Assembly (NCBI GenBank): GCA_024639125.1
Contig: JAHEJA010000015.1
Location: 33,033-97,032, forward strand
DNA from: Paracoccaceae bacterium
GTDB lineage: Bacteria > Pseudomonadota > Alphaproteobacteria > Rhodobacterales > Rhodobacteraceae
DNA length: 64,000 nucleotides
Direction: 5' to 3'
Each line of letters opens with the position of its first letter. Position 1 is the stretch's first letter. Shown one piece after another: positions 6,472 through 40,626 of the stretch. Position numbers and translations under genes: made by a program. The notes below the pieces were generated by a model that was not told the origin of the DNA, ran no database searches, and saw nothing but the letters and a program-made list of their open reading frames with translations.

Positions 6472-6500
6472 AAGCCGGGGATTTCCCCGGCTTACTTTTT
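6472..6500. terminator. Bidirectional hairpin terminator between convergent carB and neuA-like
   Basis: AAGCCGGGGatttCCCCGGCTT is a perfect 9-bp stem followed by ACTTTTT on the plus strand. It overlaps the minus-strand stop at 6492-6494. Confidence 0.6.
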
Positions 6501-7160
6501 CAGATGGTCTTCAACAGCTTTAAAATCAGCAAGCGTGTCGATATCCTGAGATCGCTCGTTTGGCATCTCGCATAGCCCAATGCGATCCGTCGCCAACCCA
6601 CCATTTGCTATAAACCAATCCGCGCCAAATACATAAACAGCCCCGTTTGGCTTGAAAACCTCGGGCAAAGATTGGCGGTTGGAAAAGCAATACTCGGGTT
6701 TAGACACAGGGATAAACGTATTGCCTTGACGCATTCCCCATTTCAAAATCGACCGCTCAGCCGGCGTTACAGTTTGCACCAAATCATAGTGCCCCGTTTC
6801 ATAAACAGATATCGCATCCAAAACGTCCTGATCCAGACGAAGTGGCGAGGTCACTTGTAACAAAACAAGCGTTTTTCCGGTCAAGTTTTGCGCCGAAATT
6901 ACATCACGCAAAACGTCATCCATTGTAGAGGTGTCTTGGGCAAATTGCGACGGTCGGTTATAGAGCTCAACCGTGTCTTGTTGATCAGACCCAAGGATTT
7001 CATGCATATCCGTTGACACAACAACCCGAGACACGGTTCGCAGACCTTGATCAACAGCATGTTGAAACAGGGGCTTTCCTGCCAGTGCGCGGATATTTTT
7101 CAAAGCAAGCCCCTTGGACCCCCCCCGTGCTGGTACAATCGCTACATATTCATTCGACAT
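6492..7160 (-). CDS. neuA: Acylneuraminate (CMP-sialic/nonulosonic acid) cytidylyltransferase, short NeuA type
   Basis: IVPARGGSKGLALKNI, QVTSPLR and FKPNGAVYVF motifs match N. meningitidis-type CMP-NeuAc synthetase rather than KdsB. The ATG at 7160 is preferred over the TTG at 7175. It overlaps the waaA stop. Confidence 0.8.
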   Translation of the reverse strand: MSNEYVAIVPARGGSKGLALKNIRALAGKPLFQHAVDQGLRTVSRVVVSTDMHEILGSDQQDTVELYNRPSQFAQDTSTMDDVLRDVISAQNLTGKTLVLLQVTSPLRLDQDVLDAISVYETGHYDLVQTVTPAERSILKWGMRQGNTFIPVSKPEYCFSNRQSLPEVFKPNGAVYVFGADWFIANGGLATDRIGLCEMPNERSQDIDTLADFKAVEDHLKK

Positions 7161-8487
7161 AGGTTGTCCCCACAAATGTGTTTAATGCCGCCAAACTCCG
7201 TGAGGTCGCACCAGATAGCCCATTACAATAGGCTTGGATGTCATTGGGCGTGCTAAAGCCATACCGACGTGCCATGAAAAATTCCTGTAATTCATTATAT
7301 GTCATCTTTTTCACAACACCCTGCGCGATGGCTTCATGCGACAGAAATTCAATAAAGAAATCACCCTGCCCAATAATCGTCGGCTTTCCAAGCGACAAAG
7401 GTTCGGAAATATTATGCGACCCCAAGTCTCCGAAGCCACCGCCAACGACAGCCATCTGGCACAGGTTTAGGTAAAAATACATTTCGCCCAAACTATCCCC
7501 AAGCATGACATCGCAACCCGCACGCCATTCTCCGTTAAGCGTGGCATCCAACGTTTCACTACGTCGCACAAACGCAATGCCTGCGCTCTTGAGCTTATTT
7601 GCGACCACATCAAATCGTTCGGGCGCCCGTGGAACAAAGATGAATATCGGGCGCTCGGGTGCATCATCCGCAAACGACGAAAGCGTGGTTTTCAGAATTT
7701 CAACAAAGTGATCTTCTTCGTCATGCACGATGCTTGCCAAAGTTATCACAGGACGCTTAGGGGGCATGCTTGGTTCAAAAGCTTGAGACGCGGCAATTAA
7801 CACATCAGGGATGTCTTGTTCGAAACGCATTTCACCCGTGATTGCAATTTTTTGCACCCCCCTTTGACGAAACCGCTCTGCATGAGCTTCGGATTTTACC
7901 ATAACGGCCGCAAAGCCAGACACAAAGCGCCCCCGCGACAAAAGCGACTTTTGATCCCGTTCAAAGGCCCGTTGTGAATATTGCCCATTACACAGCACAA
8001 GGGGAATACCCCGCCATTTTGCGGTCCTGATCATGCCGGGCCAAAATTCGATTTCCATAACCAAACCATATTTCGGGCGAAATGCTTTGAAAAACCGCAA
8101 AAATGCAAGGCCATAGTCAAACGGCACATAGACAGGTGTCAAACGGCCTTGGGCTATAGCATCAGCAAATAATTTTTGGGCAGCACTGCGCCCTGCTGGG
8201 GTGAAATGGGTTGTGACCACATATTCCCCCTGTGCCAAAAGCTGATTAATCAAAGGCGCAGCAGATCGCAATTCACCCAAGGACACGGCATGGATCCACA
8301 CATGTTGCTCGGCCCTTTGCCGGTGCAGCCCAAACCGTTCGGGCAGATGCGCCCAGTATGCGGGGTCTTTGCGCCCGCGTTTATACAAATAGGCCAAGAT
8401 CAAAGGCATCCCAAAGACCCAAATCATCCGATATAAAATATAGACCAGATGCGTTGATATGCTTGAATTATTGGGAAGCGGCTTCAC
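7150..8487 (-). CDS. waaA: 3-deoxy-D-manno-octulosonic acid (Kdo) transferase, GT30
   Basis: YKRGRKDPAYW, HAVSLGE, MEIEFWPGMI and LCNGQYS match the E. coli WaaA N-terminal region (RGRKAPAY, HSVSVGE, METELWPN, ANARLS). The start is uncertain (GTG at 8487 or internal Met). Confidence 0.8.
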   Translation of the reverse strand: MKPLPNNSSISTHLVYILYRMIWVFGMPLILAYLYKRGRKDPAYWAHLPERFGLHRQRAEQHVWIHAVSLGELRSAAPLINQLLAQGEYVVTTHFTPAGRSAAQKLFADAIAQGRLTPVYVPFDYGLAFLRFFKAFRPKYGLVMEIEFWPGMIRTAKWRGIPLVLCNGQYSQRAFERDQKSLLSRGRFVSGFAAVMVKSEAHAERFRQRGVQKIAITGEMRFEQDIPDVLIAASQAFEPSMPPKRPVITLASIVHDEEDHFVEILKTTLSSFADDAPERPIFIFVPRAPERFDVVANKLKSAGIAFVRRSETLDATLNGEWRAGCDVMLGDSLGEMYFYLNLCQMAVVGGGFGDLGSHNISEPLSLGKPTIIGQGDFFIEFLSHEAIAQGVVKKMTYNELQEFFMARRYGFSTPNDIQAYCNGLSGATSRSLAALNTFVGTTYVE

Positions 8488-9788
8488 TTGGCGTCCTTTG
8501 CATTTGTCGCATGTTTCACTGGGATCATAGTCACAAGTGTGGTGATCAGAACATCCATTTTCGCCGCCTGTCCCACGCGTAGGGTCTGGGCCGCACCGAG
8601 CGTGTCACGCCAGGTTTCCGATCGCCAGAGCGCACTTAGGTCTTGGGCGTTTTGAATAGGCAGCGCTGCCCCGGCTTGATCTAGCAACGCATAATCATTT
8701 TCAAAATTCAAGGTCCGCGGTCCGTGAATAACAGCACAGCCAAGTTGGACAGCTTCCCATGGGTTATGCCCTTCGACATCGCTGAATGTACCACCGATGA
8801 CGGCACTATTGGCCAATGAATACCACAGCCCCATTTCCCCGAACGTATCCGCGATGTAAACTTGGGTCCGCACATTTGGCGTCTGATCAAAACTGCGCAC
8901 GCCAACATCAAGCCCATGAAGTGTTGGCAGGATAGTTTCTAATCGAGTGATATCACGCGGCGCAATAATCAATAGATCCCGAGGATGGGTCGCCAGAACA
9001 TCCCGAAACGCGTCAATCGCAACAGTTTCGGTTTTGGCATGTGAGGACGCGATCAAATGGATACTCCGATCCTTGGTCAAAGACTTGAACAAAGCCAGCT
9101 CTTGTTGGTTCACATCCAATGGAGGCGCAAAAGGTTTAAGCGACCCATCAACCCGCACGAGGCGTTTGATACCAAAGGCCTGGATATTGTTTGCGGTTGC
9201 AACATCTTGGGCAGACAAGAGATCAAAGTGATCATAGATCAAACGAAACACAGGCATGCTTTTGCGTTTCTTATCGAATGACGCCTTGTTCATACGCGCG
9301 TTTATCAAAACCTGGGGAACCTTGCGCCGCGCAGTCATATCAATGAAATTCGGCCAAATATCTTGTTCAGACCACAGCACCAAATCGGGTGCCCAGTGAT
9401 CAAGAAACGCATTGATATAGCGCGATACATCAAGCGGCAAAAATTGATGCACTGTGCGATCCGGAAGGTTCTTGGCAAATGTTCGGGCGGACGCCACCGT
9501 CGAAGAGGTCACCAAAAAATTCACATCAGGGCGCACGCGAGAGATGGCATCAATCACACCACGCAGCGCCAAAGTTTCGCCCAACCCAACTGCATGAAGC
9601 CACACTAATGGCCCTTGGGGGCGAATAATTGTTGGCTTGCCCAGTTTTTCACACCACCGAACTGGGTCCTCTTTGCCGCGCATAACCCGCTTGATCAAAT
9701 GGCGTTTCGCCATCAGCGAAAACAACCACGTCACACAGCGATAGGCCCCTAGATAAAGCGATCCAATCAGATTAGACATCGACATCAT
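8484..9788 (-). CDS. Second WaaA/KdtA-like GT30 glycosyltransferase (paralog)
   Basis: 434 aa with RGKEDPVRW, HAVGLGE, WSEQDIWPNF and INARMN, the same GT30 hallmarks as the adjacent waaA but clearly diverged. It shares a 4-nt ATGA overlap with waaA and overlaps the neuC stop. Confidence 0.75.
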   Translation of the reverse strand: MMSMSNLIGSLYLGAYRCVTWLFSLMAKRHLIKRVMRGKEDPVRWCEKLGKPTIIRPQGPLVWLHAVGLGETLALRGVIDAISRVRPDVNFLVTSSTVASARTFAKNLPDRTVHQFLPLDVSRYINAFLDHWAPDLVLWSEQDIWPNFIDMTARRKVPQVLINARMNKASFDKKRKSMPVFRLIYDHFDLLSAQDVATANNIQAFGIKRLVRVDGSLKPFAPPLDVNQQELALFKSLTKDRSIHLIASSHAKTETVAIDAFRDVLATHPRDLLIIAPRDITRLETILPTLHGLDVGVRSFDQTPNVRTQVYIADTFGEMGLWYSLANSAVIGGTFSDVEGHNPWEAVQLGCAVIHGPRTLNFENDYALLDQAGAALPIQNAQDLSALWRSETWRDTLGAAQTLRVGQAAKMDVLITTLVTMIPVKHATNAKDAK

Positions 9789-10899
9789 GAAAGCGTTTTT
9801 GGAACGACCGCGCCCAGAAAGCCGGGGATTTCAAGACCTGAATGAATTGGTTGGTCGCATCCCCTTGGCCAAATTCGGTTTGTCCAGAATAGGTAACACC
9901 CCATTGCGTTTGTAGAAATTCGCTAATTTTAGCTGTTTCATCTGCACGTGCTTTAAAAATTGATGCCGCAAAAGATCGATTGGTTTGACGCGATCCGACA
10001 TCTAGCGACGATATGCCAACAAAGGGTGCTTCGCGCACGCCAGCAGAAGAATTGCCGATCATGCAGGCTGCATTCTTCATAAGTTCGGAAAAATGTGAAA
10101 ATCGCATGGACGGTAAAACACGGAACCGGTCTTTGGGGAGGCGGTTGATCACGTCTAAAATGCCATCACAGCCCGGATCATTATTGGGCCGTATGATGAC
10201 AAAATATTTTCCGCTTTCGGCTAAGGCGCCAAACAAATCTTGGGCCTGAGCGCCCATTTGGTCCGCCTCTGACGTGACAGGATGAAAGGTACAAACCCCA
10301 TAATCGCGATCCGCAATTTGATAACGCCCAATCACATCATCCAAGGTAATGCCGGATGGTTTCGCATGAAAGTCCAATTCAGGCGAACCGATCACGTAAA
10401 TCGATTCTTCATCTTCGCCCAATGCTTTGACACGCTTTGCCGCCGTTTCCGAGCTTACAAAATGGCAATAGGCAAGTTTGGAATTACAATGGCGGAACAA
10501 TTCATCAATCGTACCTGACACTTCTCCGCCTTCGATGTGAGCGCACCGAACATAGTTGGTCGCGCAGACCAATGCACAGGCCAGCGCTTCGACGCGATCC
10601 CCATGGACCAGAACCAAATCTGGCGCATGCTCTTGTATGAAATCCGAAAACCCAATCATGGTTTTGGCAAGGATCATATCCTGTGGGTCACCAGGGCGCT
10701 GATTCAAGAATTCATAAACGCCGACATTCGGTGTGCGGTGGACTTCGATTTTTGTGGTGCCGTATGCTTCCATCATGTGCATACCAGTCACAAAGAACGA
10801 AACGTCAAAGCCATTTTGACTGGCTGCAACAGCAAGCGGTTCTAATTTACCGAAATCCGCACGTGTGCCAGTGACAAATATAAGCTTTTGACCGGTCAT
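9772..10899 (-). CDS. neuC: UDP-N-acetylglucosamine 2-epimerase (hydrolysing), NeuC family
   Basis: 375 aa with LIFVTGTRADFGKLEPL, VHGDRVEALA and HIEGGEVSGTIDE motifs typical of the hydrolysing NeuC/LegG subfamily. An AAGGAAA RBS lies 6 nt upstream. Confidence 0.85.
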   Translation of the reverse strand: MTGQKLIFVTGTRADFGKLEPLAVAASQNGFDVSFFVTGMHMMEAYGTTKIEVHRTPNVGVYEFLNQRPGDPQDMILAKTMIGFSDFIQEHAPDLVLVHGDRVEALACALVCATNYVRCAHIEGGEVSGTIDELFRHCNSKLAYCHFVSSETAAKRVKALGEDEESIYVIGSPELDFHAKPSGITLDDVIGRYQIADRDYGVCTFHPVTSEADQMGAQAQDLFGALAESGKYFVIIRPNNDPGCDGILDVINRLPKDRFRVLPSMRFSHFSELMKNAACMIGNSSAGVREAPFVGISSLDVGSRQTNRSFAASIFKARADETAKISEFLQTQWGVTYSGQTEFGQGDATNQFIQVLKSPAFWARSFQKRFHDVDV

Positions 10900-10908
10900 T
10901 CGCTTTCC

Positions 10909-11940
10909 TTAGTCCTTGAAATCTTGCCACGTCAGCTGTTGATTTCGCACAACAGCTGTCATCAGTGTCTTGCCAACAACCTTGTCAAAATCATAGCCGG
11001 CTATCGCGCCATCACCTGGTCGGCGGGCCCAAATATCGGCTTCTGTAATGGTATGTCCCGCAGGAAGATCCTTGTCTGCGACAACACTGGCGCGGGCAAA
11101 GCGATAGACGTCTTCTTCGGGGCCCGTCCGTTGTTTTTCATTGTGAAGTGCCGTGTGAATTTCACGCGAGCGATCAATCAAAAACCGAAGCTCTGCCGGA
11201 TCCATGGAACATGAAATATCCGGTCCCTTGCGATATCGGCTATCGGTGTAGTGCCGTTCCAAGATAGACGCCCCGAGCGCGACAGATGCCAACGCCATTT
11301 CAGGACCAATCGAATGATCCGAAAAGCCAACGACAGCCTTGGGAAAGGCTTTCTTAAGCTCTGTCACCCCTTTTAGGGATACAATTTCAGGAGGGGATGG
11401 ATAAAGATTGGTACATTCCAACAATGCATAGTCCACGCCCGACTGTTCCAAAATTTCGACGCTTTGGCGAATGCTTTCAATCGTTTGCATCCCAGTGGAC
11501 AATATCACAGGTTTACCCTTGGCAGCGATGTGGCGGATAAGTGGTAAGTTATCCGCTTCACCCGATCCGATTTTATACGCAGGGACATCAATGCTTTCTA
11601 GAAAGTCCGCAGCGGCCCGCGAGAACGGAGTCGAGATGTAAATCAACCCAAGGCTTTCTGTATACTCCTTGAGCGCGATTTCATCCTCTAGGGAAAGTGC
11701 GCAATTCTGCATCACATCCCAAATCGAAATAGGCGCATTCGGCGGAAAAATAGACTTGGCTGCTTCGGTCATTTCATCTTCGACAATGTGCGTTTGATGC
11801 TTAACACATTCACAGCCTGACAAGGCAGCTAAACGCACCATTTCTTTGGCCACAGCCAAGTCACCACCGTGATTGATACCGATTTCAGCTATTACCAAAG
11901 GAGGTTCCGTTGGGCCAATTTTTCTAGTGCCAATGTGCAT
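10909..11940 (-). CDS. neuB: N-acetylneuraminate (nonulosonate) synthase, NeuB family
   Basis: IGTRKIGPTEPPLVIAEIGINHGGDL TIM-barrel start and a C-terminal SAF/antifreeze-like domain. The preferred start is the ATG at 11940 (GGAG 6 nt upstream). The ORF-track start at 12009 would overlap lpxL-like by 58 nt. Confidence 0.85.
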   Translation of the reverse strand: MHIGTRKIGPTEPPLVIAEIGINHGGDLAVAKEMVRLAALSGCECVKHQTHIVEDEMTEAAKSIFPPNAPISIWDVMQNCALSLEDEIALKEYTESLGLIYISTPFSRAAADFLESIDVPAYKIGSGEADNLPLIRHIAAKGKPVILSTGMQTIESIRQSVEILEQSGVDYALLECTNLYPSPPEIVSLKGVTELKKAFPKAVVGFSDHSIGPEMALASVALGASILERHYTDSRYRKGPDISCSMDPAELRFLIDRSREIHTALHNEKQRTGPEEDVYRFARASVVADKDLPAGHTITEADIWARRPGDGAIAGYDFDKVVGKTLMTAVVRNQQLTWQDFKD

Positions 11941-11951
11941 CATGCACTCCG

Positions 11952-12857
11952 TTATGAATTGTTGTGATGCGCGGGCATCTTTTTCCAGCGGCGATGTATC
12001 CAAAACCACTGTTCTGGATTTACACGAACGCGTTTCTCAAGGCTATCATTAAGATCTTGGGTCATTTGAACAGCATCAGAATGTTCAATGGGCTCTTCTA
12101 GTACAATTTCATAGCTTAGATCAGCTTGTCGAATAGCATAGGCAGGTACCATTACTGCGTTAAATTTCAAAGCTAACTCGGCAACAGATAGGGCCGTGTA
12201 TGCCGTTTCACCAAAAAACGTAACAGGCGCGCCGTTCCATGCATGTTGATCAATCAACACAGCCAACGATCCCCCAGATCGCAAAAACGTAACCATTTCC
12301 TTTAAGCCAGGGCGCCCGCGTTCGAACAAAGGCGTGCCGATTTTTGAAATGGATTCAATGTAATCTTTGTGGAAATAGGGATTGTTCATCCGCCGATATA
12401 ATCCACCAACCGACAATCCCGCATGGATCAAGTTAGCGCGCACTGCATCGTAGTTCCCAAAATGCCCAGATACCACAATGGTCGGACGTCCTTCGGACTG
12501 CGCTTGTTTCAGAAGATCCAGACCTGGACCTGAAATTGGCATTCCGATCACGTGGCGCGAAAATTCATTTGGCGAAAAGAGCTCGGTCAACGTAATCCCA
12601 ACATTGCGACACACATCTTTGGCCAATTGATCGGCTTTGTCTGGCGCGACTTCGGGCCAAACGCGGGCAAGGTTTTCAACAACGCGTTTGTTGTAACCTG
12701 CCAAAGGCGCTACTATTTTTCCAAAAAACCACCCGCCAAAACGTCTGCGGGGCGAAAAAGGGATCACACGAAGCAACCACAGCAACCCGCGAATTATCGT
12801 AGCTTGCAGTCGGTATTTCACGTCCTGACGGGTTGAGAGGGTCTTTTTATTTGCCAC
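11952..12857 (-). CDS. lpxL: Lipid A biosynthesis late (lauroyl/myristoyl) acyltransferase, LpxL/HtrB family
   Basis: 301 aa with an N-terminal membrane anchor and the HxxxxD acyltransferase motif (SGHFGNYD), the length typical of Kdo2-lipid IVA acyltransferases. It is the first gene of the minus-strand operon. Confidence 0.8.
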   Translation of the reverse strand: MANKKTLSTRQDVKYRLQATIIRGLLWLLRVIPFSPRRRFGGWFFGKIVAPLAGYNKRVVENLARVWPEVAPDKADQLAKDVCRNVGITLTELFSPNEFSRHVIGMPISGPGLDLLKQAQSEGRPTIVVSGHFGNYDAVRANLIHAGLSVGGLYRRMNNPYFHKDYIESISKIGTPLFERGRPGLKEMVTFLRSGGSLAVLIDQHAWNGAPVTFFGETAYTALSVAELALKFNAVMVPAYAIRQADLSYEIVLEEPIEHSDAVQMTQDLNDSLEKRVRVNPEQWFWIHRRWKKMPAHHNNS

Positions 12858-12981: not shown

Positions 12982-13647
12982 ATGCTCATCGCGCCCTTTG
13001 GCCAGTCGGAACACTTTATGCGTAAAAAAGACAAATTCGATGTACCAATCCACGATGACGCAGCATTGCAAAAATCTTTGGCCTATATGCGTTGGTCAGA
13101 CCATGCAATTCTACGCCAAGTATGGAACAACTTTGATCAGATTGCACCACGGGTATATCGCTCCAATCATCCCTCGCCAAAGCAATTTGAATGGCTGCGC
13201 GATCAAGGGATCAAAACGATCCTTAGTTTTCGCGCAAATAGATTCGCTCCAACGCACACAGAGAAATATCTTTGCAAGAAGCTTGGTCTAACTTTCCATA
13301 GCTGCCCAATGTCATCAAGCGCACCGCTTGCGTCAGAATTGAATGCTTTATTTGGCTACTTTGATACACTTGAAAAACCGTTTCTGATGCATTGCAAATC
13401 AGGCGCAGACCGCACCAGTTTAGCCAGCGCGCTCTATCTGATCGATCAAGCCGGCTATTCAGCCGATCAAACCAAACACATGTTTTCATTGCGGTATGTA
13501 CACCTTAAGTTTTCCAAAAAAGGCGTGCTTGATGCGTTCATCGATGCTTTTGCGCGCGCCAATCACAGCACTGGCATCCCCATAAGAGAGTGGGTCAACA
13601 CGGTCTATAACCCAGAGGAACTTCAGGCCGCATTTGATGCGCGCTAG
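12982..13647 (+). CDS. Cys-based (CX5R) phosphatase, atypical dual-specificity/tyrosine phosphatase family
   Basis: Catalytic P-loop HCKSGADRTS (CX5R) resembling PFA-DSP/Siw14-like HCK(R/S)GxxRTG. Divergent from the lpxL-like operon. Confidence 0.6.
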   Translation: MLIAPFGQSEHFMRKKDKFDVPIHDDAALQKSLAYMRWSDHAILRQVWNNFDQIAPRVYRSNHPSPKQFEWLRDQGIKTILSFRANRFAPTHTEKYLCKKLGLTFHSCPMSSSAPLASELNALFGYFDTLEKPFLMHCKSGADRTSLASALYLIDQAGYSADQTKHMFSLRYVHLKFSKKGVLDAFIDAFARANHSTGIPIREWVNTVYNPEELQAAFDAR

Positions 13648-32906: not shown

Positions 32907-34394
32907 GTGCAGCTATTCTGGTTCAAACGCGATCTTCGTGTGTTTGATAACCGCGCCCTTTCACTGGCTGCGGCCCGTGGTCCTGTGCTTCCGATTTATG
33001 TTTTTGAACCTGAAATGTGGGCATGCCCCGATGCATCGGCACGGCATTTAACCTTTGTACACCAATGCTTGGGCGAATTGCATAATGACCTTGCACGTGC
33101 GGGTCAGCCATTGGTGACCCGATTTGGACCAATCCTCGATGTACTTGAAGATTTACGTCAAACCTATTCGATCCAATCGCTATGGTCCCATCAAGAAACG
33201 GGCAACGCATGGAGCTATGAACGTGACAAGCGCGTTGCCGCGTGGTGCCGTGACAATGCCATTCAATGGCACGACATTCAAAACCACGGCGTTGTCCGAC
33301 CCTTAAAATCCCGCAATGGCTGGGCCATGCAATGGGATCGGTTCATGGCTGAACCCACCACGCCAACGCCGATCCTAACCCCCATTACGGATGCCCCGTT
33401 CCTTTGCCCGAGCGCCCGTGATTTAACGATGACGCCCGACAACTGTTCACACGCACAGCAAGGCGGGCGACGCGCGGGCCAAGAACGGCTTGCATCATTC
33501 TTGGATCATCGCGGGCGCACCTATCGTAGCGCCATGTCGTCACCGCTAGATGGGGCCGCAGCCTGTTCGCGGATCTCGCCACATCTGGCCTGGGGCACAG
33601 TATCGTTGCGAGAAGTCACTCAAGCCACATGGTCCGCACAAATGCAGCCACGGTCCGTGCAATGGAAAGCATCATTAAAATCATTCAACAGTCGTCTACA
33701 TTGGCATTGCCACTTTATTCAAAAGCTAGAAGATGAACCAAGGCTTGAATGGGAAAACATGCATCCGGCCTATAATGGATTGCGCCCTGACCAAGCTGAT
33801 CCAATCAAGCTTGCTGCTTGGGCGAATGGTGAAACTGGCCTCCCGTTTGTGGATGCCTGTATGCGCAGTTTACGCGCCACGGGGTGGTTAAACTTTCGGA
33901 TGCGCGCAATGGTTATGGCGGTCGCGAGCTATCATCTTTGGCTGGATTGGAAAGCAACGGGACATGTCCTAGCCAGATATTTCACCGATTACGAACCGGG
34001 CATCCACTGGAGCCAAGTTCAAATGCAATCGGGCACCACAGGCATAAACACAGTCCGCGTTTATAATCCGATCAAACAAGGCTATGACCAAGACCCCACC
34101 GGGGCCTTTACACGGACATGGGTTCCCGAGCTGGAACTGATTGATGATCTTTATTTACAAGAACCGTGGAAGGCGCCGAATGCGGCAACAATATTGGGTA
34201 AATCCTATCCAATGCCGATCGTCGATGTCACGCATGCCGCCCGAGAAGCCAAAGATCGCATTTGGGCCGTTCGCCGCACCGAAGGGTTTAGAGATGGGGC
34301 TGCAAAAGTTCTAAAAAAACATGCCAGCCGCAAACCAGCCACCAAACGCGCGCGCCCCAAAGCAGCGTCCAATCAATTAAGCTTACCCCTATGA
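32907..34394 (+). CDS. Cryptochrome/photolyase family protein, canonical domain order (photolyase or DASH-like)
   Basis: N-terminal alpha/beta domain (LFWFKRDLRVFDNRAL) and a C-terminal FAD-binding helical domain (GETGLPFVDACMRSLRATGWLNFRMR...VYNPIKQGYDQDP). GTG start at 32907 with GGAG 6 nt upstream. Confidence 0.85.
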   Translation: MQLFWFKRDLRVFDNRALSLAAARGPVLPIYVFEPEMWACPDASARHLTFVHQCLGELHNDLARAGQPLVTRFGPILDVLEDLRQTYSIQSLWSHQETGNAWSYERDKRVAAWCRDNAIQWHDIQNHGVVRPLKSRNGWAMQWDRFMAEPTTPTPILTPITDAPFLCPSARDLTMTPDNCSHAQQGGRRAGQERLASFLDHRGRTYRSAMSSPLDGAAACSRISPHLAWGTVSLREVTQATWSAQMQPRSVQWKASLKSFNSRLHWHCHFIQKLEDEPRLEWENMHPAYNGLRPDQADPIKLAAWANGETGLPFVDACMRSLRATGWLNFRMRAMVMAVASYHLWLDWKATGHVLARYFTDYEPGIHWSQVQMQSGTTGINTVRVYNPIKQGYDQDPTGAFTRTWVPELELIDDLYLQEPWKAPNAATILGKSYPMPIVDVTHAAREAKDRIWAVRRTEGFRDGAAKVLKKHASRKPATKRARPKAASNQLSLPL

Positions 34395-34525
34395 AAATGC
34401 GCAAGAAATCGGATCTTCCTACCAAAACCTGCGTTACCTGTGGACGTCCGTTCACGTGGCGCAAGAAATGGGCCAAGGTGTGGGACAGCGTGAAGTATTG
34501 TTCAGAAAAATGCAGGCGTACATAA
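34391..34525 (+). CDS. DUF2256 small zinc-ribbon protein (44 aa), missing from the ORF track
   Basis: MKMRKKSDLPTKTCVTCGRPFTWRKKWAKVWDSVKYCSEKCRRT has a CxxC...CxxxC signature typical of DUF2256. Its ATG overlaps the upstream stop (ATGA), and its TAA overlaps the next ATG (TAATG). Confidence 0.75.
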   Translation: MKMRKKSDLPTKTCVTCGRPFTWRKKWAKVWDSVKYCSEKCRRT

Positions 34526-35751
34526 TGCAAGATAATGATCTTTTGACCGACCTTCCGTTGGAAGCTGAAAACATTGATTTCACACCTACCCGCGCTGCGG
34601 GCCTTGCCCGATTGGACAAATTCGTCTCGCGGACGGGGCGGCATTATGCATCCCAACGTAACTATGATTTTGGGCCAAAATTTCGATCAAACGTTTCCGC
34701 ATTATCACCATGGATACGACACGGTCTCGTAAACGAATATGATGTGTTAGAGCGCGTTTTAGCCAAGCATTCACTATCAAGCGCCGAAAAATTCGTTCAA
34801 GAAGTCATGTGGCGGACGTATTTCAAAGGCTGGTTAGAACATCGCCCTACGGTTTGGGATCACTATAAACGTGACTTGGAACGCTTAAGCACAAACGTAA
34901 CTGATCCCAGTTACAGGCAGGCAATCAATGGTGAAACGGGAATAGAGTGTTTCGATCACTGGGCTCACGAATTGGTCCATACCGGCTATCTGCACAATCA
35001 TGCTCGCATGTGGTTTGCATCGATCTGGGTCTTTACTCTGCGATTGCCATGGCAGCTTGGCGCAGATTTTTTCATGCAACATTTGTTAGATGGTGATCCA
35101 GCATCCAACACTCTGAGTTGGCGCTGGGTGTCAGGATTACATACCCAAGGCAAAACCTATCTGGCCCGCGCAGAGAATATCGCCAAATTCACCAATGGTC
35201 GTTTTAACCCGATTGGACAGCTTGCGACAACGGCACATCCATTACTCGAAGAGGTGGATCACCCAAAAATATCACTGTCTCATATTAATACACCGATTAC
35301 GGAACCCTATATTCTTTTGCTTAGCGAAGACGACACTTACCCAAACATCGCACCAAATCCAGTTGACGTAGTTGCCGTTAACTGTTCCGCGTTGCGGTCC
35401 CCTCGCCCTCTAAATCCAGTCATTACCGAATTTGTGGACGCGGCGTTGCGACAAGGGCTAGATCACTTTCAATCCAATGACGATACACTCGCAACCCCAA
35501 ACACCGTGGTCGCGCAATTGGTGAAATCGGCACAAACCCAAGGAGTGCGCACAATCGTCACCCCCTATGCCACGACGGGTCCTGTTCGCGATGTTCTGAA
35601 AGATATATCACCCATGCTTCAAGATGCGGGATTGCGACTACAACAGGTTCAACGCACCTACGATCAACTTTGTTGGGCACATGCCTCCAAGGGATTTTTT
35701 GCTCTGAAAAAACAAATACCGCCTTTACTGAGTGCGTTGAAATTAGCCTAA
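34525..35751 (+). CDS. Photolyase-like protein with N-terminal FAD-binding domain and no N-terminal alpha/beta domain
   Basis: Residues ~15-230 match the photolyase FAD-binding domain (RNYDFGPKFRSNVSALSPWIRHGL; GETGIECFDHWAHELVHTGYLHNHARMWFASIW; SWRWVSG). The C-terminal ~180 aa weakly resemble a photolyase alpha/beta domain. The start is at M24 of the track ORF. Confidence 0.7.
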   Translation: MQDNDLLTDLPLEAENIDFTPTRAAGLARLDKFVSRTGRHYASQRNYDFGPKFRSNVSALSPWIRHGLVNEYDVLERVLAKHSLSSAEKFVQEVMWRTYFKGWLEHRPTVWDHYKRDLERLSTNVTDPSYRQAINGETGIECFDHWAHELVHTGYLHNHARMWFASIWVFTLRLPWQLGADFFMQHLLDGDPASNTLSWRWVSGLHTQGKTYLARAENIAKFTNGRFNPIGQLATTAHPLLEEVDHPKISLSHINTPITEPYILLLSEDDTYPNIAPNPVDVVAVNCSALRSPRPLNPVITEFVDAALRQGLDHFQSNDDTLATPNTVVAQLVKSAQTQGVRTIVTPYATTGPVRDVLKDISPMLQDAGLRLQQVQRTYDQLCWAHASKGFFALKKQIPPLLSALKLA

Positions 35752-37265
35752 AGCGACGCTAAAAATTTCTGTGCAGATATGCGGTATTCTGTCTTTTTAA
35801 CATCATCCATTTTGTCCCATGTCCGAAACACATGCGACAAACGCGGGTTTCCCCGAAGCTTGGCTTGGTTACGATCCAAAAAGTCCCAATACAGCGGATT
35901 AAACGGGCAAGCATTCTCGCCTGTTTTTTGTTTGACATCATATCGGCACCCGGAACAGTAATCCGACATTTTACTGATGTAATTACCGCTCGCAGCATAG
36001 GGCTTTGACCCTAAAATACCGCCATCCGCGAATTGGCTCATTCCAATTACATTGGGCGCTTCGACCCATTCATAGGCATCTGCATAAACGGCCAAATACC
36101 ATTCATGCACCTGAAATGGATCAACACCCGCAAGCATGGCAAAATTCCCTGTCACCATGAGCCGCTGGATGTGATGTGCATAGGCTTCATCGCGCGTTTG
36201 CTCGATCGCCGAGGCCATACATGCCATATCCGTCTGTGCATCCCAATAAAACAAAGGAAGATCCCGCGACGCATCCAGAAAATTTTGATCGGTGTAATCT
36301 GGCATCTTTAACCAATAAATACCGCGCACATATTCACGCCAACCAATAATTTGTCGAATATATCCTTCGACAGCATTCAAGGGCGCGGCGCCATCATAAT
36401 AGGCGCGCTCCACACGCGCGCAAACTTCGAGAGGCGTCAACAGACCGATATTGATATATTGCGCCAAGATCGAATGATACAGAAATGGCTCACCAGAAAG
36501 CATCGCATCCTGATAATCGCCAAAACCAGCCAATGCAGTTGACGCGAAATGTTCCAGCGCGACCAAGGCATCCTTGCGCGTGACGGCAAACCAAAACCCA
36601 TCTAACCGCCCAAAATTTTTGGCAAACTTTTCCTCGACAAGCTCAAGGACTTCTTGCGTGATTGGGTCAGGCTGAACTTTGACAGGGGACGGCATAAACA
36701 AATCGCCCTTGGCTGGCTTTCGGTTTTCCGCATCAAAATTCCACTGCCCCCCTTGGGGACCATCATCACACATCAAAAGCCCGGTTTTTCGCCGCATGTC
36801 ACGGTAAAAATATTCCATCCGCAATTGTTTGCGCCCGTCTGCCCAAGTTTGGAATTCTTGATGTGTCGCGATAAAACGATCATCATCCACCATCTGTATC
36901 GACAGATCACTCTCAAGCAAGGCGTGGTTCAAACGATACTCAGATGGCTCTGTCACAACAAGCTGCGTCACCCCCAGCATTTGCATCTGCCGTCTAGCTT
37001 CGCTGACTACATCGCCTGCATTCTGGGGGTCATCCAGCTTTGTGTACACAACGCGCCAACCGCTCTGCCGCAACTCTTGGGCAAAATGGCGCATTGCGGA
37101 AAACACAAATGCCAACTTCCGTTTATGATGCGCCACATACGTTGCTTCGCTTGCAACTTCTGCCATCAAGATAACATCAGTCGCCTTATCAGCTGTTTCT
37201 ATCGCGCTAATTTTGGGGTTCAACTGATCCCCTAAAATTAGAACTAACCGATTATGACCCGCCAT
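35748..37265 (-). CDS. FeS-BCP type cryptochrome/(6-4) photolyase (CryB/PhrB family)
   Basis: 505 aa with LVLILGDQL at the N-terminus and four conserved Cys in DYCSGCRYD...ENACPFNPLYW, the 4Fe-4S ligand pattern of PhrB/CryB. Convergent 4-nt overlap with the upstream operon. Confidence 0.85.
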   Translation of the reverse strand: MAGHNRLVLILGDQLNPKISAIETADKATDVILMAEVASEATYVAHHKRKLAFVFSAMRHFAQELRQSGWRVVYTKLDDPQNAGDVVSEARRQMQMLGVTQLVVTEPSEYRLNHALLESDLSIQMVDDDRFIATHQEFQTWADGRKQLRMEYFYRDMRRKTGLLMCDDGPQGGQWNFDAENRKPAKGDLFMPSPVKVQPDPITQEVLELVEEKFAKNFGRLDGFWFAVTRKDALVALEHFASTALAGFGDYQDAMLSGEPFLYHSILAQYINIGLLTPLEVCARVERAYYDGAAPLNAVEGYIRQIIGWREYVRGIYWLKMPDYTDQNFLDASRDLPLFYWDAQTDMACMASAIEQTRDEAYAHHIQRLMVTGNFAMLAGVDPFQVHEWYLAVYADAYEWVEAPNVIGMSQFADGGILGSKPYAASGNYISKMSDYCSGCRYDVKQKTGENACPFNPLYWDFLDRNQAKLRGNPRLSHVFRTWDKMDDVKKTEYRISAQKFLASL

Positions 37266-37326: not shown

Positions 37327-38151
37327 TTAGGAAAAGCCCAACCGCTTGGCCATGAATGCAATGGCCGCCAAATAGCCATCAACGCTCCCGCAATCAAATC
37401 GCTGGCCCGCCAAGGTCACAGCGTCGACATGCCCCTGCGCCGCTTGCGTATTGATCGCATCTGCCAGTTGAATTTCACCACCAGCCCCAACCGGCTGATC
37501 GCGTAAAATGGCAAACACATCAGGCGTCAATACATAGCGACCAATACTTGCCATATTCGAAGGCGCATCTTTTGCATCTGGCTTTTCCACCAAACCAGCA
37601 ACCCCGCCCGAAATTCGATCAGGATTAACAACGCCATATTTGGAAATATCCGGTCCGTTGACTTCCATAACACTTAGCTGCGTCTTGCCCGTCTTGTTAT
37701 AGGCCGCGACCAAATCCGCCGTTATGCCATCCCCGTCATAGGTCAAAAAATCATCCGCAAGCAAAACAGCAAAGGGGTCATCCCCCACAGCACGCTCAGC
37801 ACACAACACCGCATGACCTAATCCCAATTGCTCTGGCTGACGCACAAATATACATTCAACGCCCAAAGGCAGAATATTTCTAACACGCTCCGCTTGCTCA
37901 TCTTTGCCCTTGGCGCGCAAAGCCATTTCCAGCTCTTGATTGCTATCAAAATGGTCTTCGATAGCCCGTTTGTTCCGCCCCGTTACAAATATCAGAGTCT
38001 CAATTCCAGCAGCAATCGCTTCTTCTGCGGCGTATTGAATTAATGGCTTGTCAATGATTGGCAACAATTCTTTAGGCATTGCTTTGGTCGCAGGCAGGAA
38101 CCTTGTCCCAAAACCCGCTACTGGAAATACTGCTTTTTTGATTGGTTTCAT
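37327..38151 (-). CDS. galU: UTP--glucose-1-phosphate uridylyltransferase
   Basis: KAVFPVAGFGTRFLPATKAMPKELLPI signature. Confidence 0.9.
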   Translation of the reverse strand: MKPIKKAVFPVAGFGTRFLPATKAMPKELLPIIDKPLIQYAAEEAIAAGIETLIFVTGRNKRAIEDHFDSNQELEMALRAKGKDEQAERVRNILPLGVECIFVRQPEQLGLGHAVLCAERAVGDDPFAVLLADDFLTYDGDGITADLVAAYNKTGKTQLSVMEVNGPDISKYGVVNPDRISGGVAGLVEKPDAKDAPSNMASIGRYVLTPDVFAILRDQPVGAGGEIQLADAINTQAAQGHVDAVTLAGQRFDCGSVDGYLAAIAFMAKRLGFS

Positions 38152-38327
38152 AACAATAAGACTACATTAAAAACGTCATCTTCTGGCTAACACAATCTAT
38201 AGACACGTCCAAGCCCAAAGCAGATTACCTTTAAAACAATATCATTTTCACGTTTGTACAAATACTCAAATATATACCTCAACAATGAACGACACGGCCC
38301 AGAATTGAGCGTTATTATTTTAGCAAA

Positions 38328-39500
38328 TTAAGTCAAAATCTTCCCAAGCCGGTCCAATGCAGCTTCGATATTTTCTGCACTATTTGCATAGGAAAACCGA
38401 ACGTACCCTTCGCCCATTGACCCAAAGCTGGTGCCTGCAATTGTGGCAACACCTGCTTGATCTAAGAATAAATTTTGTGCTTCAATTGCGGTCAATCCGG
38501 TTCCAGAAATATTGGGAAATGCGTAAAATGCCCCTGCGGAATCCGTACATGTCACACCCGGAAGCGCATTCAAACCGGCGACAATAATTTTACGCCTTTG
38601 ATCGAAATGCGCCATCATATCGGCGACTGCATCTTGGGGTCCTTCTAGGGCTGCGATTCCGGCAAACTGCGTGGGTGCATTCACACATGAATGATCGTTA
38701 ATACACAACCGTGTCACATGCTCGACGGCACTTTCTGGCCAAACAGCATAGCCTAAACGCCATCCTGTCATCGCATAGGTTTTGGACCAACCATCCAACA
38801 TAATAAGCCGATCACGGATTTCGGGATACTGCAATAGACTCACGTGGTCTTGACCATCATAAAGCATTTGAGAATAAATCTCGTCTGACAAAATCGCAAC
38901 ATGGGGGTGCTGATCAAGCCCTGCGACTAACTTGTCGATTTCCGCTTTGGGCGTCACGCCACCCGTCGGATTGGCGGGGCTATTAATGATTATCAAACGC
39001 GTTTTAGGTGTAATTTTCGACAGGACTTCGTCCGCATTAAACGAAAATCCATTTTCTTCGCGTAATTCAATAGGAACCGGAGTGGCCCCAGAATAACGGA
39101 TCACGGATTCATAAATTGGGAAGCCCGGATTGGGGTACATGATTTCTGCCCCCGGTTCACCAAACATTGTGATCGCAAAGAACATTGTTGGCTTACCGCC
39201 TGGTACGACCACCACATGATCGGGATTCACGTCAACCCCGTGCCGTCGGTTCAAATCACGCGCCACCGCTGCACGCAATTGGGGCAATCCGTTGGCTGGC
39301 GTATATCCATGATGCCCATCTCGCATCGCTTTGATACCGGCCTCGACGATATGGTCCGGCGTTGCAAAATCAGGTTGACCAATGCCCAGATTGATGATGT
39401 CTTTGCCCTCTGACGCAAGCTTTTGCGCACGCGCCAACACGACGAAAGCGGACTCGGTTCCAAGTCGATATAGGTTCTGGGCAAATTGCAATTTAGACAT
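38328..39500 (-). CDS. Pyridoxal-phosphate-dependent aminotransferase, class I (aspartate/aromatic aminotransferase-like)
   Basis: INLGIGQPDF, GYTPANG, the SKT(Y) Lys motif region and a C-terminal fold. The start is set at MSKLQFAQ (39500); the track start at 39581 adds a Cys-rich, non-conserved leader. Confidence 0.85.
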   Translation of the reverse strand: MSKLQFAQNLYRLGTESAFVVLARAQKLASEGKDIINLGIGQPDFATPDHIVEAGIKAMRDGHHGYTPANGLPQLRAAVARDLNRRHGVDVNPDHVVVVPGGKPTMFFAITMFGEPGAEIMYPNPGFPIYESVIRYSGATPVPIELREENGFSFNADEVLSKITPKTRLIIINSPANPTGGVTPKAEIDKLVAGLDQHPHVAILSDEIYSQMLYDGQDHVSLLQYPEIRDRLIMLDGWSKTYAMTGWRLGYAVWPESAVEHVTRLCINDHSCVNAPTQFAGIAALEGPQDAVADMMAHFDQRRKIIVAGLNALPGVTCTDSAGAFYAFPNISGTGLTAIEAQNLFLDQAGVATIAGTSFGSMGEGYVRFSYANSAENIEAALDRLGKILT

Positions 39501-39551
39501 TCGATTTCCTCTCGGAGTAGCCGCCGAAGCAGTGCAGAAATTACAACAGAA

Positions 39552-39581
39552 TTGCAAGAATACTTGCAATAGATTTTGCAT
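39552..39581. promoter_or_regulatory. Three phased TTGCA(A/T) hexamers (12-bp spacing) upstream of the aminotransferase
   Basis: aTTGCAAgaatacTTGCAAtagattTTGCAt, 52-80 bp upstream of the start at 39500. Confidence 0.3.
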
Positions 39582-39651
39582 GATAAACTAGGTTAGACAT
39601 AATGACTGGACCCAACGCAGCCTTGTCAGGCTAAACACTTGAACCCTTAAT

Positions 39652-40626
39652 CTATCCTGTGGGCTGATCATCTTCGATATAATAACGAATATTTTCCACA
39701 AAGCTTGTATCAGCGGACATGCCCAGTTTCAGCGCTTTGGTCGGTTCAAAATCTGATCGCCAACCGCCAACGATCTTTTGCACGTCTGGCTGCGCATTCC
39801 ATGTAATCAACTCTTCCGCCTCTGGCCCCACAACGGACGTCATGGCATCGATCATTTCGCGGATTGTTGTCTTTCGTCCTGGCATCATCATGCACCGACT
39901 GGATCCAAAATCTTGGCCTGGAATTTCAGCGCCAAGAATTAGATTTTCGACGCATTTTCTAGGTGACAAATAGTAATGCGCAAAGTCTTTGGAGACGGGG
40001 CAGTTTGCGGGTTGGCCATTCAAGGGTTCCCGCAGGATTGACGACATAAAGCTAGATGCCGCGCGATTGGGCGCGCCGGGCCGAACAGAAATTGTCGGCA
40101 ATCGGAACCCACGCCCATCAATAAATCCTTTGCGGCTATAATCATTCACCAACAATTCACCGATTGCTTTTTGTGTCCCATAAGAAGACTGCGGCATCAA
40201 TGCCGTGTGATCCAAAATTGGATCTGGCACTTCACCGCCAAAAACCGCAATCGAGGATGTGAAAACAACCGTGGGACAGGTATTCAAACTGCGCGCGCGC
40301 TCAAGAACGTTTAACGTGCCCATCATATTGATTGACATGCCCGCAAAGAAATCGTCTTCGGCATGAGCAGACACTATGGCAGCCAACAGATAGATCACAT
40401 CCACCTCTGACCCTATGGTATCGGCAACTGACTGCGGATCAGCGATGTCACATGTGACTGTTTTGATATCGAAATTGGCCGGAATGGACGCTGGCATGTG
40501 TATATCAGCCAATGTAAGCGACTCGATCTTCTGCCCGCGAAGCTGACCACGTGCCACCAAAGAGCGCGCCAGTTTTTGGCCGATAAAACCACCGCCACCA
40601 ATGATCAAGATATTCATACGTTTCAT
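39652..40626 (-). CDS. NAD-dependent epimerase/dehydratase family protein (DenD-like sugar-acid dehydrogenase candidate)
   Basis: ILIIGGGGFIGQKL Rossmann motif and a YxxxK region (SSYGTQKAIGE). Last gene of a minus-strand sugar-acid operon. Function is inferred only. Confidence 0.65.
   Translation of the reverse strand: MKRMNILIIGGGGFIGQKLARSLVARGQLRGQKIESLTLADIHMPASIPANFDIKTVTCDIADPQSVADTIGSEVDVIYLLAAIVSAHAEDDFFAGMSINMMGTLNVLERARSLNTCPTVVFTSSIAVFGGEVPDPILDHTALMPQSSYGTQKAIGELLVNDYSRKGFIDGRGFRLPTISVRPGAPNRAASSFMSSILREPLNGQPANCPVSKDFAHYYLSPRKCVENLILGAEIPGQDFGSSRCMMMPGRKTTIREMIDAMTSVVGPEAEELITWNAQPDVQKIVGGWRSDFEPTKALKLGMSADTSFVENIRYYIEDDQPTG

Follow-up and report, generated by a model that had tools for sequence, protein, structure and literature searches.

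The locus described here raises the question of what two glycosyltransferases of family GT30 are doing inside a set of genes for the synthesis of CMP-Neu5Ac, and which activated sugar each of them uses. GT30 counts as a family with one activity, that of the CMP-Kdo transferases, and it is known for Kdo transfer only (PMC5811610). In the window, that is, the whole 64,000-nucleotide stretch of Paracoccaceae DNA that was analysed, the two genes are direct neighbours (Table 1), and they are referred to below as A and B. The first-pass annotation had flagged A as a diverged WaaA paralog, lying between neuC and a second GT30 gene taken for the canonical waaA (here B), and had proposed a CMP-nonulosonate as its donor. 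The window translation confirms A as an open reading frame of 434 amino acids with an ATG start, situated between neuC and B, and all three motifs reported for it, HAVGLGE, WSEQDIWPNF and INARMN, are present. The translation of B contains HAVSLGE and MEIEFWPGM.

Table 1. Features of the predicted operon and its surroundings (window coordinates).
Feature	Coordinates	Strand	Evidence and remarks
Terminator-like hairpin, bidirectional	6472..6493	.	Between carB and the operon end; 9-bp stem with 7 GC pairs, called on both strands
NeuA-like CMP-nonulosonate synthetase	6492..7175	-	PF02348, 9.2e-18; likely start ATG at 7162
GT30-B (neighbour)	7150..8487	-	PF04413, 2.4e-43; beta/gamma-like GT30
GT30-A (flagged gene)	8484..9788	-	PF04413, 1.9e-46; alphaproteobacterial-lineage WaaA homologue
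NeuC-type hydrolysing UDP-GlcNAc 2-epimerase	9772..10899	-	TIGR03568, 347.7 bits, exceeding the cutoff of 235.9
NeuB-type nonulosonate (N-acetylneuraminate) synthase	10909..12009	-	PF03102, 1.6e-69, plus SAF domain
LpxL-like late lipid A acyltransferase	11952..12857	-	PF03279, 4.3e-43; first gene of the operon
DSP/PTP-like phosphatase, divergent	12982..13647	+	Pfam Tc-R-P, PTP-NADK and Y_phosphatase3, 2e-7 to 4e-6

The six genes, which follow the order lpxL-like, neuB, neuC, A, B, neuA and are all on the same strand, are predicted to form one co-transcribed operon of a marine Rhodobacterales bacterium, since their junctions overlap and neuA is followed by a terminator-like hairpin, the latter located by a consensus scan only. 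The stop codon of neuC falls within the start region of A, the TGA of A and the GTG of B overlap as GTGA, and the ATG of neuA overlaps the stop codon of B. The operon contains the gene set for CMP-Neu5Ac, composed of a hydrolysing 2-epimerase, a NeuB-type synthase and a NeuA-like synthetase. NeuB, which is 74–83% identical among Rhodobacterales loci, reaches 346 bits against TIGR03569, just below its cutoff of 399.65, and 235 bits against PseI. The NeuA-like protein has a CTP_transf_3 match; its best score is that of a PseF-type model (82 bits, below the cutoff), compared with at most 32 bits for KdsB-type models, and it shares 46–49% identity with the cytidylyltransferase found at the same position in other loci (L098, L101 and L117–L119). 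The sugar would be Neu5Ac rather than another nonulosonate, given that the operon contains no Leg- or Pse-specific genes and given the chemistry of Loktanella rosea described below. The lpxL-like gene, whose start codon is possibly downstream of position 12857, has a lauroyl acyltransferase as its top NCBIfam match, under the cutoff, and it also adjoins neuB in L001, L004, L005 and L093. The divergent phosphatase gene, with homologues near neuB in 14 of the 80 loci surveyed below, is a possible accessory gene of the operon. Apart from A and B, neither the minimal operon nor positions 1–45 kb of the window contain a glycosyltransferase.

Both A and B score far above the PF04413 cutoff of 23.9 (158.3 and 148.2 bits, respectively) and share 24% identity, with a mutual score of 94 bits, which agrees with the earlier description of A as clearly diverged from its neighbour; the two are deeply diverged GT30 paralogs within a complete CMP-Neu5Ac gene set. 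PF04413 is the sole family matched: the sialyltransferase families GT29, GT38, GT42, GT52, GT80, GT97 and GT100 have no Pfam match in either protein, and sialyltransferases are absent among the 50 PDB fold matches listed for each of the two models. The WaaA equivalog cutoffs of NCBIfam (NF004385–NF004389) are reached by neither protein, the top scores being 274 bits for A (cutoff 617, NF004387) and 320 bits for B (cutoff 524, NF004386), although these models may not cover Rhodobacterales.

The view of A as the diverged copy and B as the canonical waaA does not agree with the sequence comparisons. A outscores B against an alphaproteobacterial WaaA, that of S. meliloti (189 versus 139 bits), and its scores grade smoothly into those of ordinary WaaAs, for instance that of Sneathiella. 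In a neighbour-joining tree with 100 bootstraps, the A clade (bootstrap 99) groups with C-type GT30s and alphaproteobacterial WaaAs (bootstrap 87), and the B clade (bootstrap 100) never groups with A. B is nearest to the WaaAs of Legionella, Neisseria and E. coli type. The earlier labels were probably inverted: A is most likely a vertically inherited alphaproteobacterial WaaA, and B appears as the phylogenetic outlier, a putative beta/gamma-like GT30 xenolog. A recent origin of B by duplication of A was rejected, as an A+B clade is recovered in 0 of 100 bootstraps and the mutual score of the two is lower than that of either against any reference WaaA. By its sequence B could nevertheless be an ordinary Kdo transferase, since its divergence from beta/gamma WaaAs (211–240 bits) is no greater than the divergence among these (237 bits between E. 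coli and Neisseria WaaA).

The conservation of the arrangement was surveyed in 80 loci of Rhodobacterales species representatives, which were retrieved with an A-type profile. The genes neuC-A-B are contiguous in 69 of the 80, which argues that the arrangement is not due to chance, and neuC lies directly upstream of A in 74. The five-gene order of L179 and L180 is identical to that of the window, and neuC-A-B is also present in Loktanella agnita and in four further Loktanella loci. None of the annotated neighbourhoods contained a Pfam family of sialyltransferases. Nonulosonate clusters often supply capsules or flagellin glycosylation, and the neu genes here might likewise serve a capsule, an O-antigen or flagellin, their linkage to the GT30 genes being functionally meaningless; that neuB and a neuA-like gene occur within 10 kb of neuC-A-B in only 45 and 51 of the 80 loci would be consistent with such a role. 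We consider this highly improbable in view of the translational coupling of neuC, A, B and neuA, the retention of neuC-A-B over so many species loci, the proximity of lpxL, kds and msbA-like genes, and the chemically proven Neu-Kdo core of Loktanella (PMC3210612).

The loci in which the arrangement is modified help to tell the two paralogs apart, with the terms “A-only” and “B-only” being statements on the ±8–10 kb around each locus. L098 has the order kdsB-kdsA-kdsD <> neuB-neuC-A-B-neuA and pairs two CMP-ulosonate synthetases, KdsB and NeuA, with two GT30s. L031 and L048, both from incomplete single-cell genomes, have A in the order kdsD-kdsB-x-MT-A-HAD, with no B and no neu genes within 10 kb, and this waaA-HAD synteny agrees with the waaA-HAD-lpxK order of S. 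meliloti. The pair is split in L097, L113 and L121 (Amylibacter kogurei and two metagenome loci), where it is B that remains with the neu genes: A. kogurei has neuB-neuC-B-GFO_IDH-CTP_transf_3-SDR, L121 has neuB <> B-GFO-CTP_transf_3-SDR, and L113 has neuC-B on a contig too short to judge other glycosyltransferases. B is the sole glycosyltransferase of the neu operons in L097 and L121. The kdsD-kdsB context and the HAD synteny, together with the alphaproteobacterial clade and the Sneathiella continuum, link A to Kdo; the loci of A. kogurei, L113 and L121, together with the lack of any other glycosyltransferase in the minimal operon, link B to the neu genes.

The reverse assignment, with A as the CMP-nonulosonate transferase and B as the housekeeping WaaA, is the one originally proposed. 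It would account for neuC-A being the tightest adjacency of the survey, for the persistence of neuC-A without an adjacent B in a Yoonia-like lineage (L039, L062 and L071), and for the resemblance of B to bifunctional beta/gamma WaaAs. The split pairs argue against it, as they keep B and not A in the neu operon, and so does the position of A within the alphaproteobacterial WaaA lineage. The situation that the first-pass annotation had named as contradicting its proposal, A in ordinary duplicated WaaA clades of taxa without neu genes, is found in part.

Regarding the residues, the numbering of Aquifex WaaA, which reportedly comes from Schmidt et al. in 2012, agrees with the PDB sequence. G30, E31, E98, K162, R212, N273 and E276, which we take to be the catalytic and CMP-binding residues, are all kept in the A family, and the B family keeps them with the exception of K162, which is replaced by Arg family-wide. 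In all copies, the canonical P-R-H motif is without its His. The A family carries S57G, E132D, E244D, G332E and L337W at positions that are invariant in reference WaaAs, a feature that could favour A as the enzyme with the unusual donor. The B family has its own changes, R154Q and K208R and, in E. coli numbering, Y316L, G333S/A, N354T and F355I; S327G is a further B-specific change. As each family has its own substitutions, the residue changes were rejected as decisive evidence of a donor switch, and we know of no WaaA structure with bound Kdo by which to interpret them. The copies of A in L031 and L048, which nest within the neu-linked A clade, carry the same HAVGLGE/EQD signature and the same substitutions with no neu genes within 10 kb; the motifs that had been read as a sign of divergence are therefore lineage marks rather than signs of a donor switch, and A as the nonulosonate transferase seems quite improbable.

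The AF2 models of A and B (pLDDT 92.1 and 91.5, respectively) both have Aquifex WaaA (2xci) as their top Foldseek match, with E-values of 1.2e-19 and 1.3e-19, and, since the two share this match at near-equal E-values, the fold comparison was dropped as a discriminator between them. The C-terminal CMP-Kdo-binding domain of Acinetobacter WaaA (4bfc) is also matched by both models, with an rmsd of 1.8 Å for A and 8.0 Å for B. The closer fit of the modelled C-terminal domain of A is no more than suggestive.

A single bifunctional WaaA is the usual situation, and a pair of monofunctional WaaA paralogs would, to our knowledge, be without precedent. A and B could still be such a pair, both of them using CMP-Kdo, one adding Kdo I and the other the α2→4-linked Kdo II, with Neu being attached by an unrelated sialyltransferase encoded elsewhere. 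This division of labour would agree with the only activity known for GT30, with the catalytic and CMP-binding residues kept in both proteins (save for the Arg of B at Aquifex position 162), with their resemblance to ordinary WaaAs, each from a different lineage of proteobacteria, and with the A-B pairs of L077 and L107, which have no neu genes nearby; in addition, GT29-like sialyltransferase sequences have been reported in Loktanella (PMC5811610). It is harder to reconcile with a minimal operon that holds the full CMP-Neu5Ac pathway and no other transferase, with B as the only glycosyltransferase of two neu operons and with annotated neighbourhoods devoid of sialyltransferase families, and we regard it as a serious rival, though rather less likely than not.

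The chemistry of a related organism points to a possible product. According to a review (PMC3210612), the “against the rules” lipooligosaccharide (LOS) of L. rosea, described by Ieranò et al. in 2010, has the core α-Neu-(2→8)[α-Kdo-(2→4)]-α-Kdo-lipid A, with precisely two Kdo and a single Neu, which is α2→8-linked to Kdo I. The LPS of R. capsulatus is also stated to contain sialic acid (Krauss 1992, as cited in PMC9631793). Beyond the L. rosea structure and the donor promiscuity of Lst and Maf, no literature link of GT30 or WaaA to sialic or nonulosonic acids was found. Lst also transfers Kdo from CMP-Kdo (PMC8092323), which provides a precedent for crossover between Kdo and Neu5Ac donors.

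We tentatively favour, with confidence slightly short of evenly balanced, an assignment in which A is a Kdo transferase and B a candidate CMP-Neu5Ac:Kdo transferase that completes a core of the L. rosea type. The operon would then act late in the assembly of lipid A and the inner core. NeuC, NeuB and NeuA would convert UDP-GlcNAc into CMP-Neu5Ac, the LpxL-like enzyme would attach a secondary acyl chain, and A and B, two inverting GT30 enzymes with a GT-B fold and a predicted membrane anchor, would add the ulosonic acids. In the donor and acceptor specificities that we infer, A most likely moves Kdo from CMP-Kdo onto lipid IVA, probably as both Kdo I and Kdo II, and B, a beta/gamma-like GT30 that may have been gained or kept together with the neu genes, is the likelier of the two to move Neu5Ac from CMP-β-Neu5Ac to the O-8 position of Kdo I. 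With CMP-β-Neu5Ac as its donor, an inverting GT30 would yield an α-linkage, as observed, and the combined action of A and B would lead to α-Neu-(2→8)[α-Kdo-(2→4)]-α-Kdo, the core found in L. rosea. The original idea of a CMP-nonulosonate donor for one of the paralogs is strengthened by the conserved neuC-A-B arrangement, the pairing in L098 and the L. rosea core; it fits B better than A, as B is the copy that stays in the neu operons of L097, L113 and L121. In its broader form, the claim is evenly poised in our judgement: one of the two paralogs, most likely B, would be the first GT30 with a nonulosonate donor, a CMP-Neu5Ac:Kdo α2,8-neuraminyltransferase present across hundreds of Rhodobacterales species and the missing enzyme for the L. 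rosea LOS and the sialic acid of R. capsulatus LPS.

Compared with known systems, A and B resemble the WaaA/KdtA enzymes of E. coli and Aquifex aeolicus (2XCI/2XCU) in their PF04413 domain, GT-B fold and N-terminal membrane helix, in the Aquifex residues kept by both families and in their linkage to lipid A and Kdo genes. Here, in contrast to these enzymes, a genome holds two and in some cases three copies, which have diverged deeply and are co-transcribed with the genes for CMP-Neu5Ac; all copies lack the P-R-H His, A and B stay below the equivalog cutoffs, and the donor of B may differ. The multifunctional chlamydial KdtA, also a GT30, makes α-Kdo-(2→8)-α-Kdo, the same α2→8 ulosonate-to-Kdo regiochemistry as the Neu-(2→8)-Kdo bond; there a single polypeptide uses CMP-Kdo throughout, whereas here a separate paralog possibly uses another donor. 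Lst (GT52), Cst (GT42) and the GT80 enzymes share the donor class (CMP-β-ulosonates), the inverting mechanism and the α-linked LOS products, but they have no sequence or Pfam kinship to A or B, and their acceptor is a terminal galactose instead of the inner-core Kdo proposed here. The LOS of L. rosea, a member of the same order, has two Kdo and one Neu on lipid A, the product expected here; in the accessible part of PMC3210612 it stands as a structure without a proposed enzyme, and the Loktanella loci of the survey come from L. agnita and other species of the genus.

Should B use CMP-Neu5Ac, it would bring the number of structurally distinct routes of bacterial sialylation to seven or more and would show a shift of donor specificity between two CMP-activated 2-keto-3-deoxy acids. 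Genes would be assigned to the L. rosea LOS, an orphan for fifteen years, and to the sialic acid reported from the Rhodobacter core in 1988–1992, and sialic acid would be built into the inner core close to lipid A in one of the most abundant marine bacterial groups, with a housekeeping role and not one of host mimicry. Should both paralogs be Kdo transferases, they would still be of some interest as the first conserved two-enzyme split of WaaA bifunctionality. The compact six-gene operon is a directly testable system for either outcome.

The C-type GT30 linked to kdsB was considered as a universal primary WaaA and rejected, as it constitutes a tiny family with about 19 clusters above 300 bits. 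In HLUCCO07 this type is found beside kdsB together with A and B, and the presence of such a third GT30 in some genomes complicates the two-enzyme model.

Protein A, a 434-residue member of the GT30 (Kdo transferase, WaaA) family, is encoded in an operon of six minus-strand ORFs that runs from 12857 to 6492 without intergenic gaps and is closed by a hairpin. At neuC/A, A/B (GTGA) and B/neuA, the stop codon of one gene overlaps the start codon of the next. The first-pass annotation had described two GT30 paralogs with A placed between neuC and the second one, B; this arrangement was confirmed, the two proteins being only 24% identical (94 bits), and all the motifs quoted for them were found in the translations. 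Housekeeping genes flank the operon: aspS and carB at one end, and genes for sugar transport together with hemY/hemD, tsaD and gpsA at the other. In its first 45 kb, the window showed no glycosyltransferase besides A and B.

Features of the window and of related loci (L-numbers: loci from other genomes or metagenomes)
Feature	Sequence	Position	Strand	Family or content
LpxL-like lipid A acyltransferase	window	11952-12857	-	PF03279
NeuB	window	10909-12009	-	PF03102 + SAF
NeuC	window	9772-10899	-	TIGR03568, above cutoff
GT30 protein A	window	8484-9788	-	PF04413, E = 1.9e-46
GT30 protein B	window	7150-8487	-	PF04413, E = 2.4e-43
NeuA/PseF-like cytidylyltransferase	window	6492-7175	-	PF02348
Hairpin closing the operon	window	6472-6493
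Phosphatase-like gene	window	12982-13647	+	dual-specificity/tyrosine-phosphatase-like
Three adjacent photolyase/cryptochrome-family genes	window	32907-37265		DNA_photolyase + FAD_binding_7; FAD_binding_7 alone; DPRP family
Sugar-nucleotide-type gene run	window	37327-41531	-	NTP_transferase, class I/II aminotransferase, NAD-dependent epimerase/dehydratase, PfkB kinase
C-type GT30	L085	11929-13278
C-type GT30	L086	11917-13254
C-type GT30	L095	10001-11350
Two genes directly upstream of A-B	L107	4644-6739		GNAT acetyltransferase, polysaccharide deacetylase

Both proteins are genuine GT30 enzymes by sequence, fold and conserved residues. Both match solved WaaA structures at the sequence level, and the AlphaFold models (pLDDT 92.1 for A and 91.5 for B) share Aquifex aeolicus WaaA (2xci) as top PDB match, with E about 1e-19; no sialyltransferase occurs among the 50 PDB matches listed for each. 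The functional residues of Aquifex WaaA, reportedly G30, E31, E98, K162, R212, N273 and E276 (Schmidt et al. 2012; numbering verified against the PDB sequence), are kept family-wide in A and B except at K162, where A has Lys and B has Arg. Neither protein reaches the NCBIfam WaaA equivalog cutoffs, and neither looks like a pseudo-enzyme. In the column of E. coli H270 (residue 279 of A, 288 of B), the P-R-H histidine, invariant in 15 of 15 reference WaaAs, is lost in all three Rhodobacterales GT30 families, being replaced by Asp, Phe or Tyr in A, by Ala in B and by Trp in the third, the C-type.

The nearest relatives of A and of B are Rhodobacterales proteins (about 45-54% identity), and one A-like and one B-like protein are found together in several genomes or contigs. 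An A-type profile, run against one genome for each GTDB species, yielded 318 loci. The best 80 of these all belong to Rhodobacterales, going by record title or nearest matches; among them are Planktomarina, Yoonia, Loktanella, Tabrizicola, Shimia, Thalassovita, Pseudogemmobacter and Rhodobacter sp. Among these 80, neuC, A and B are contiguous in 69; NeuB (74-83% identical) lies within 10 kb of A in 45 and a NeuA-like cytidylyltransferase in 51. The neuC-A-B arrangement is a conserved Rhodobacterales trait, and the exact gene order of the window recurs in metagenome contigs L179 and L180. Kdo, lipid A and export genes form part of the cluster in some loci, as in L098 (kdsB-kdsA-kdsD <> neuB-neuC-A-B-neuA), in L001, L093 and others, where lpxL precedes neuB, and in L183, where an MsbA-like exporter diverges from neuC. 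In the rearranged clusters L117-L120, neuC-neuB-neuA diverges from B-A; the GT30 order is inverted and the two genes remain adjacent.

A product of this kind has been described in the same order. The Loktanella rosea lipooligosaccharide core, in the account given by a review (Ieranò et al. 2010, in PMC3210612), consists of three ulosonic acids only, α-Neu-(2→8)[α-D-Kdo-(2→4)]-α-D-Kdo-(2→ lipid A, which in the review's words "implies a very different biosynthesis"; sialic acid is also cited for the LPS of Rhodobacter capsulatus 37b4 (Krauss 1992, as cited in PMC9631793). Five Loktanella loci, that of L. agnita included, have the neuC-A-B triad, L. rosea itself not being among the loci. Acting on CMP-β-Neu5Ac, an inverting GT30 would yield the α-anomer, as observed in L. 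rosea, and chlamydial GT30 enzymes make an α2→8 linkage to Kdo, with the same regiochemistry. In PMC5811610, GT30 is presented as a family of CMP-Kdo transferases, and no GT30 assigned to Neu transfer was found in the literature searched; the opposite donor crossover is known, since Lst, a GT52 sialyltransferase, is able to transfer Kdo (PMC8092323). An unlinked sialyltransferase may instead add Neu: GT29-like sequences are mentioned in Loktanella (PMC5811610). The Neu of L. rosea is reported to have a free amino group, and the deacetylase of L107 could be linked to this.

The first-pass annotation had taken A for the diverged paralog and B for the canonical waaA, and the evidence runs the opposite way. 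Reference WaaAs were taken from whole chromosomes filed as plasmids in PLSDB (N. gonorrhoeae, S. meliloti, A. baumannii, E. coli, Proteus and Shinella; NZ_CP119142.1, CP090106.1, NZ_CP064203.1 and others). A scores above B against the WaaAs of Sinorhizobium meliloti (189 versus 139 bits), Shinella (175-184 versus 140-144) and E. coli (166 versus 153), and B above A against those of Legionella (172-181 versus 137-144) and Neisseria (170 versus 110); the A-B score is lower than any score of A or B against a reference, Sulfurovum excepted (93-100 bits). A distance-based (NJ) tree of 116 sequences, bootstrapped 100 times, gives the A and B clades support of 99 and 100; in it A joins the C-type (84) and then the alphaproteobacterial WaaAs (87), and A with B receives 0. 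In an exhaustive phmmer search with A over 1.84 billion cluster representatives, scores fell smoothly from 461 to 235 bits, the sole named member in the lower part of this range being a Sneathiella WaaA. Outside its own family, B is closest to single-copy metagenome GT30s without nearby neu genes (211-240 bits); these most resemble Neisseria and E. coli WaaAs, so that B looks like a beta/gamma-type xenolog rather than a duplicate of A.

The residues that made A appear diverged, S57G (HAVGLGE), E132D (EQD), G332E and L337W (E. coli numbering), recur in the kds-linked, neu-free proteins of L031 and L048, while L026 shares E132D and L337W and keeps S57. All three A-only proteins nest within the A clade, those of L031 and L048 adjoining the window's A and P0004, a triad-type protein. 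These motifs mark the lineage and give no evidence for a changed donor.

Where the pair is separated (gene presence judged within 8-10 kb on either side of each GT30 gene), A lies beside Kdo genes, and B beside neu genes. L031 and L048 carry kdsD-kdsB-x-methyltransferase-A-HAD, an order that echoes waaA-HAD-lpxK of S. meliloti, and lack B and neu genes within 10 kb; B is found in neuB-neuC-B-GFO_IDH-CTP_transf_3-SDR of Amylibacter kogurei, in neuC-B of L113 and in neuB <> B-GFO_IDH-CTP_transf_3-SDR of L121. There is counter-evidence: a Yoonia-like lineage (L039, L062, L071) has neuC-A with no adjacent B and the same ABC transporter downstream, and the A-B pairs of L077 (Shimia marina) and L107 have no neu genes nearby (within 8 kb for L107). 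In sequence, the distance of B from beta/gamma WaaAs does not exceed that among those WaaAs, and B might simply transfer Kdo. We consider that A is probably the lineage's own Kdo transferase and, more tentatively, at somewhat under even chances, that B, as the better candidate of the two, is a CMP-Neu5Ac:Kdo transferase. That both transfer Kdo is rather unlikely. Neu transfer by A, despite the neuC-A loci, appears improbable. The proposal that a GT30 uses a CMP-nonulosonate gains strength from an operon conserved in many species, two cytidylyltransferases with two GT30s and a chemically proven Neu-Kdo core in the same order, whereas its assignment to A was probably inverted, B being favoured. 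If either protein were a Neu transferase, it would give GT30 a new donor specificity, a question directly testable by standard lipid A biochemistry.

The C-type GT30 (about 449 aa), present in some genomes and divergent from kdsB-HAD, forms a small family, sister to A, with E60D in the catalytic GE motif. Chromids of Marivivens sp. JLT3646 and Aestuarium zhoushanense carry it next to lptC/lptD and an O-antigen ligase gene, and Rhodobacteraceae bacterium HLUCCO07 has it in addition to lpxL-neuB…neuC-A-B. The C-type suggests that Kdo transferases have subfunctionalised in a few lineages, where it fits three transfers by three enzymes.

Most related loci (among them L001, L002, L003, L097, L121 and L183) have a CTP_transf_3, adh_short and GFO_IDH trio downstream of B, reminiscent of Campylobacter ptmB/ptmA/ptmF; the window operon has the cytidylyltransferase only. 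This enzyme is 28-35% identical to the trio-type and 46-49% to those of L098, L101 and L117-L119, so two different nonulosonate-activation modules may exist, perhaps for two different sugars. The phosphatase-like gene diverges from the operon, and homologues of its product (31-45% identical) adjoin neuB in 14 of the 80 loci; its putative role is possibly phosphate removal, the lipid A of L. rosea being without phosphate. Elsewhere in the window lie the photolyase-family trio and the sugar-nucleotide-type run.
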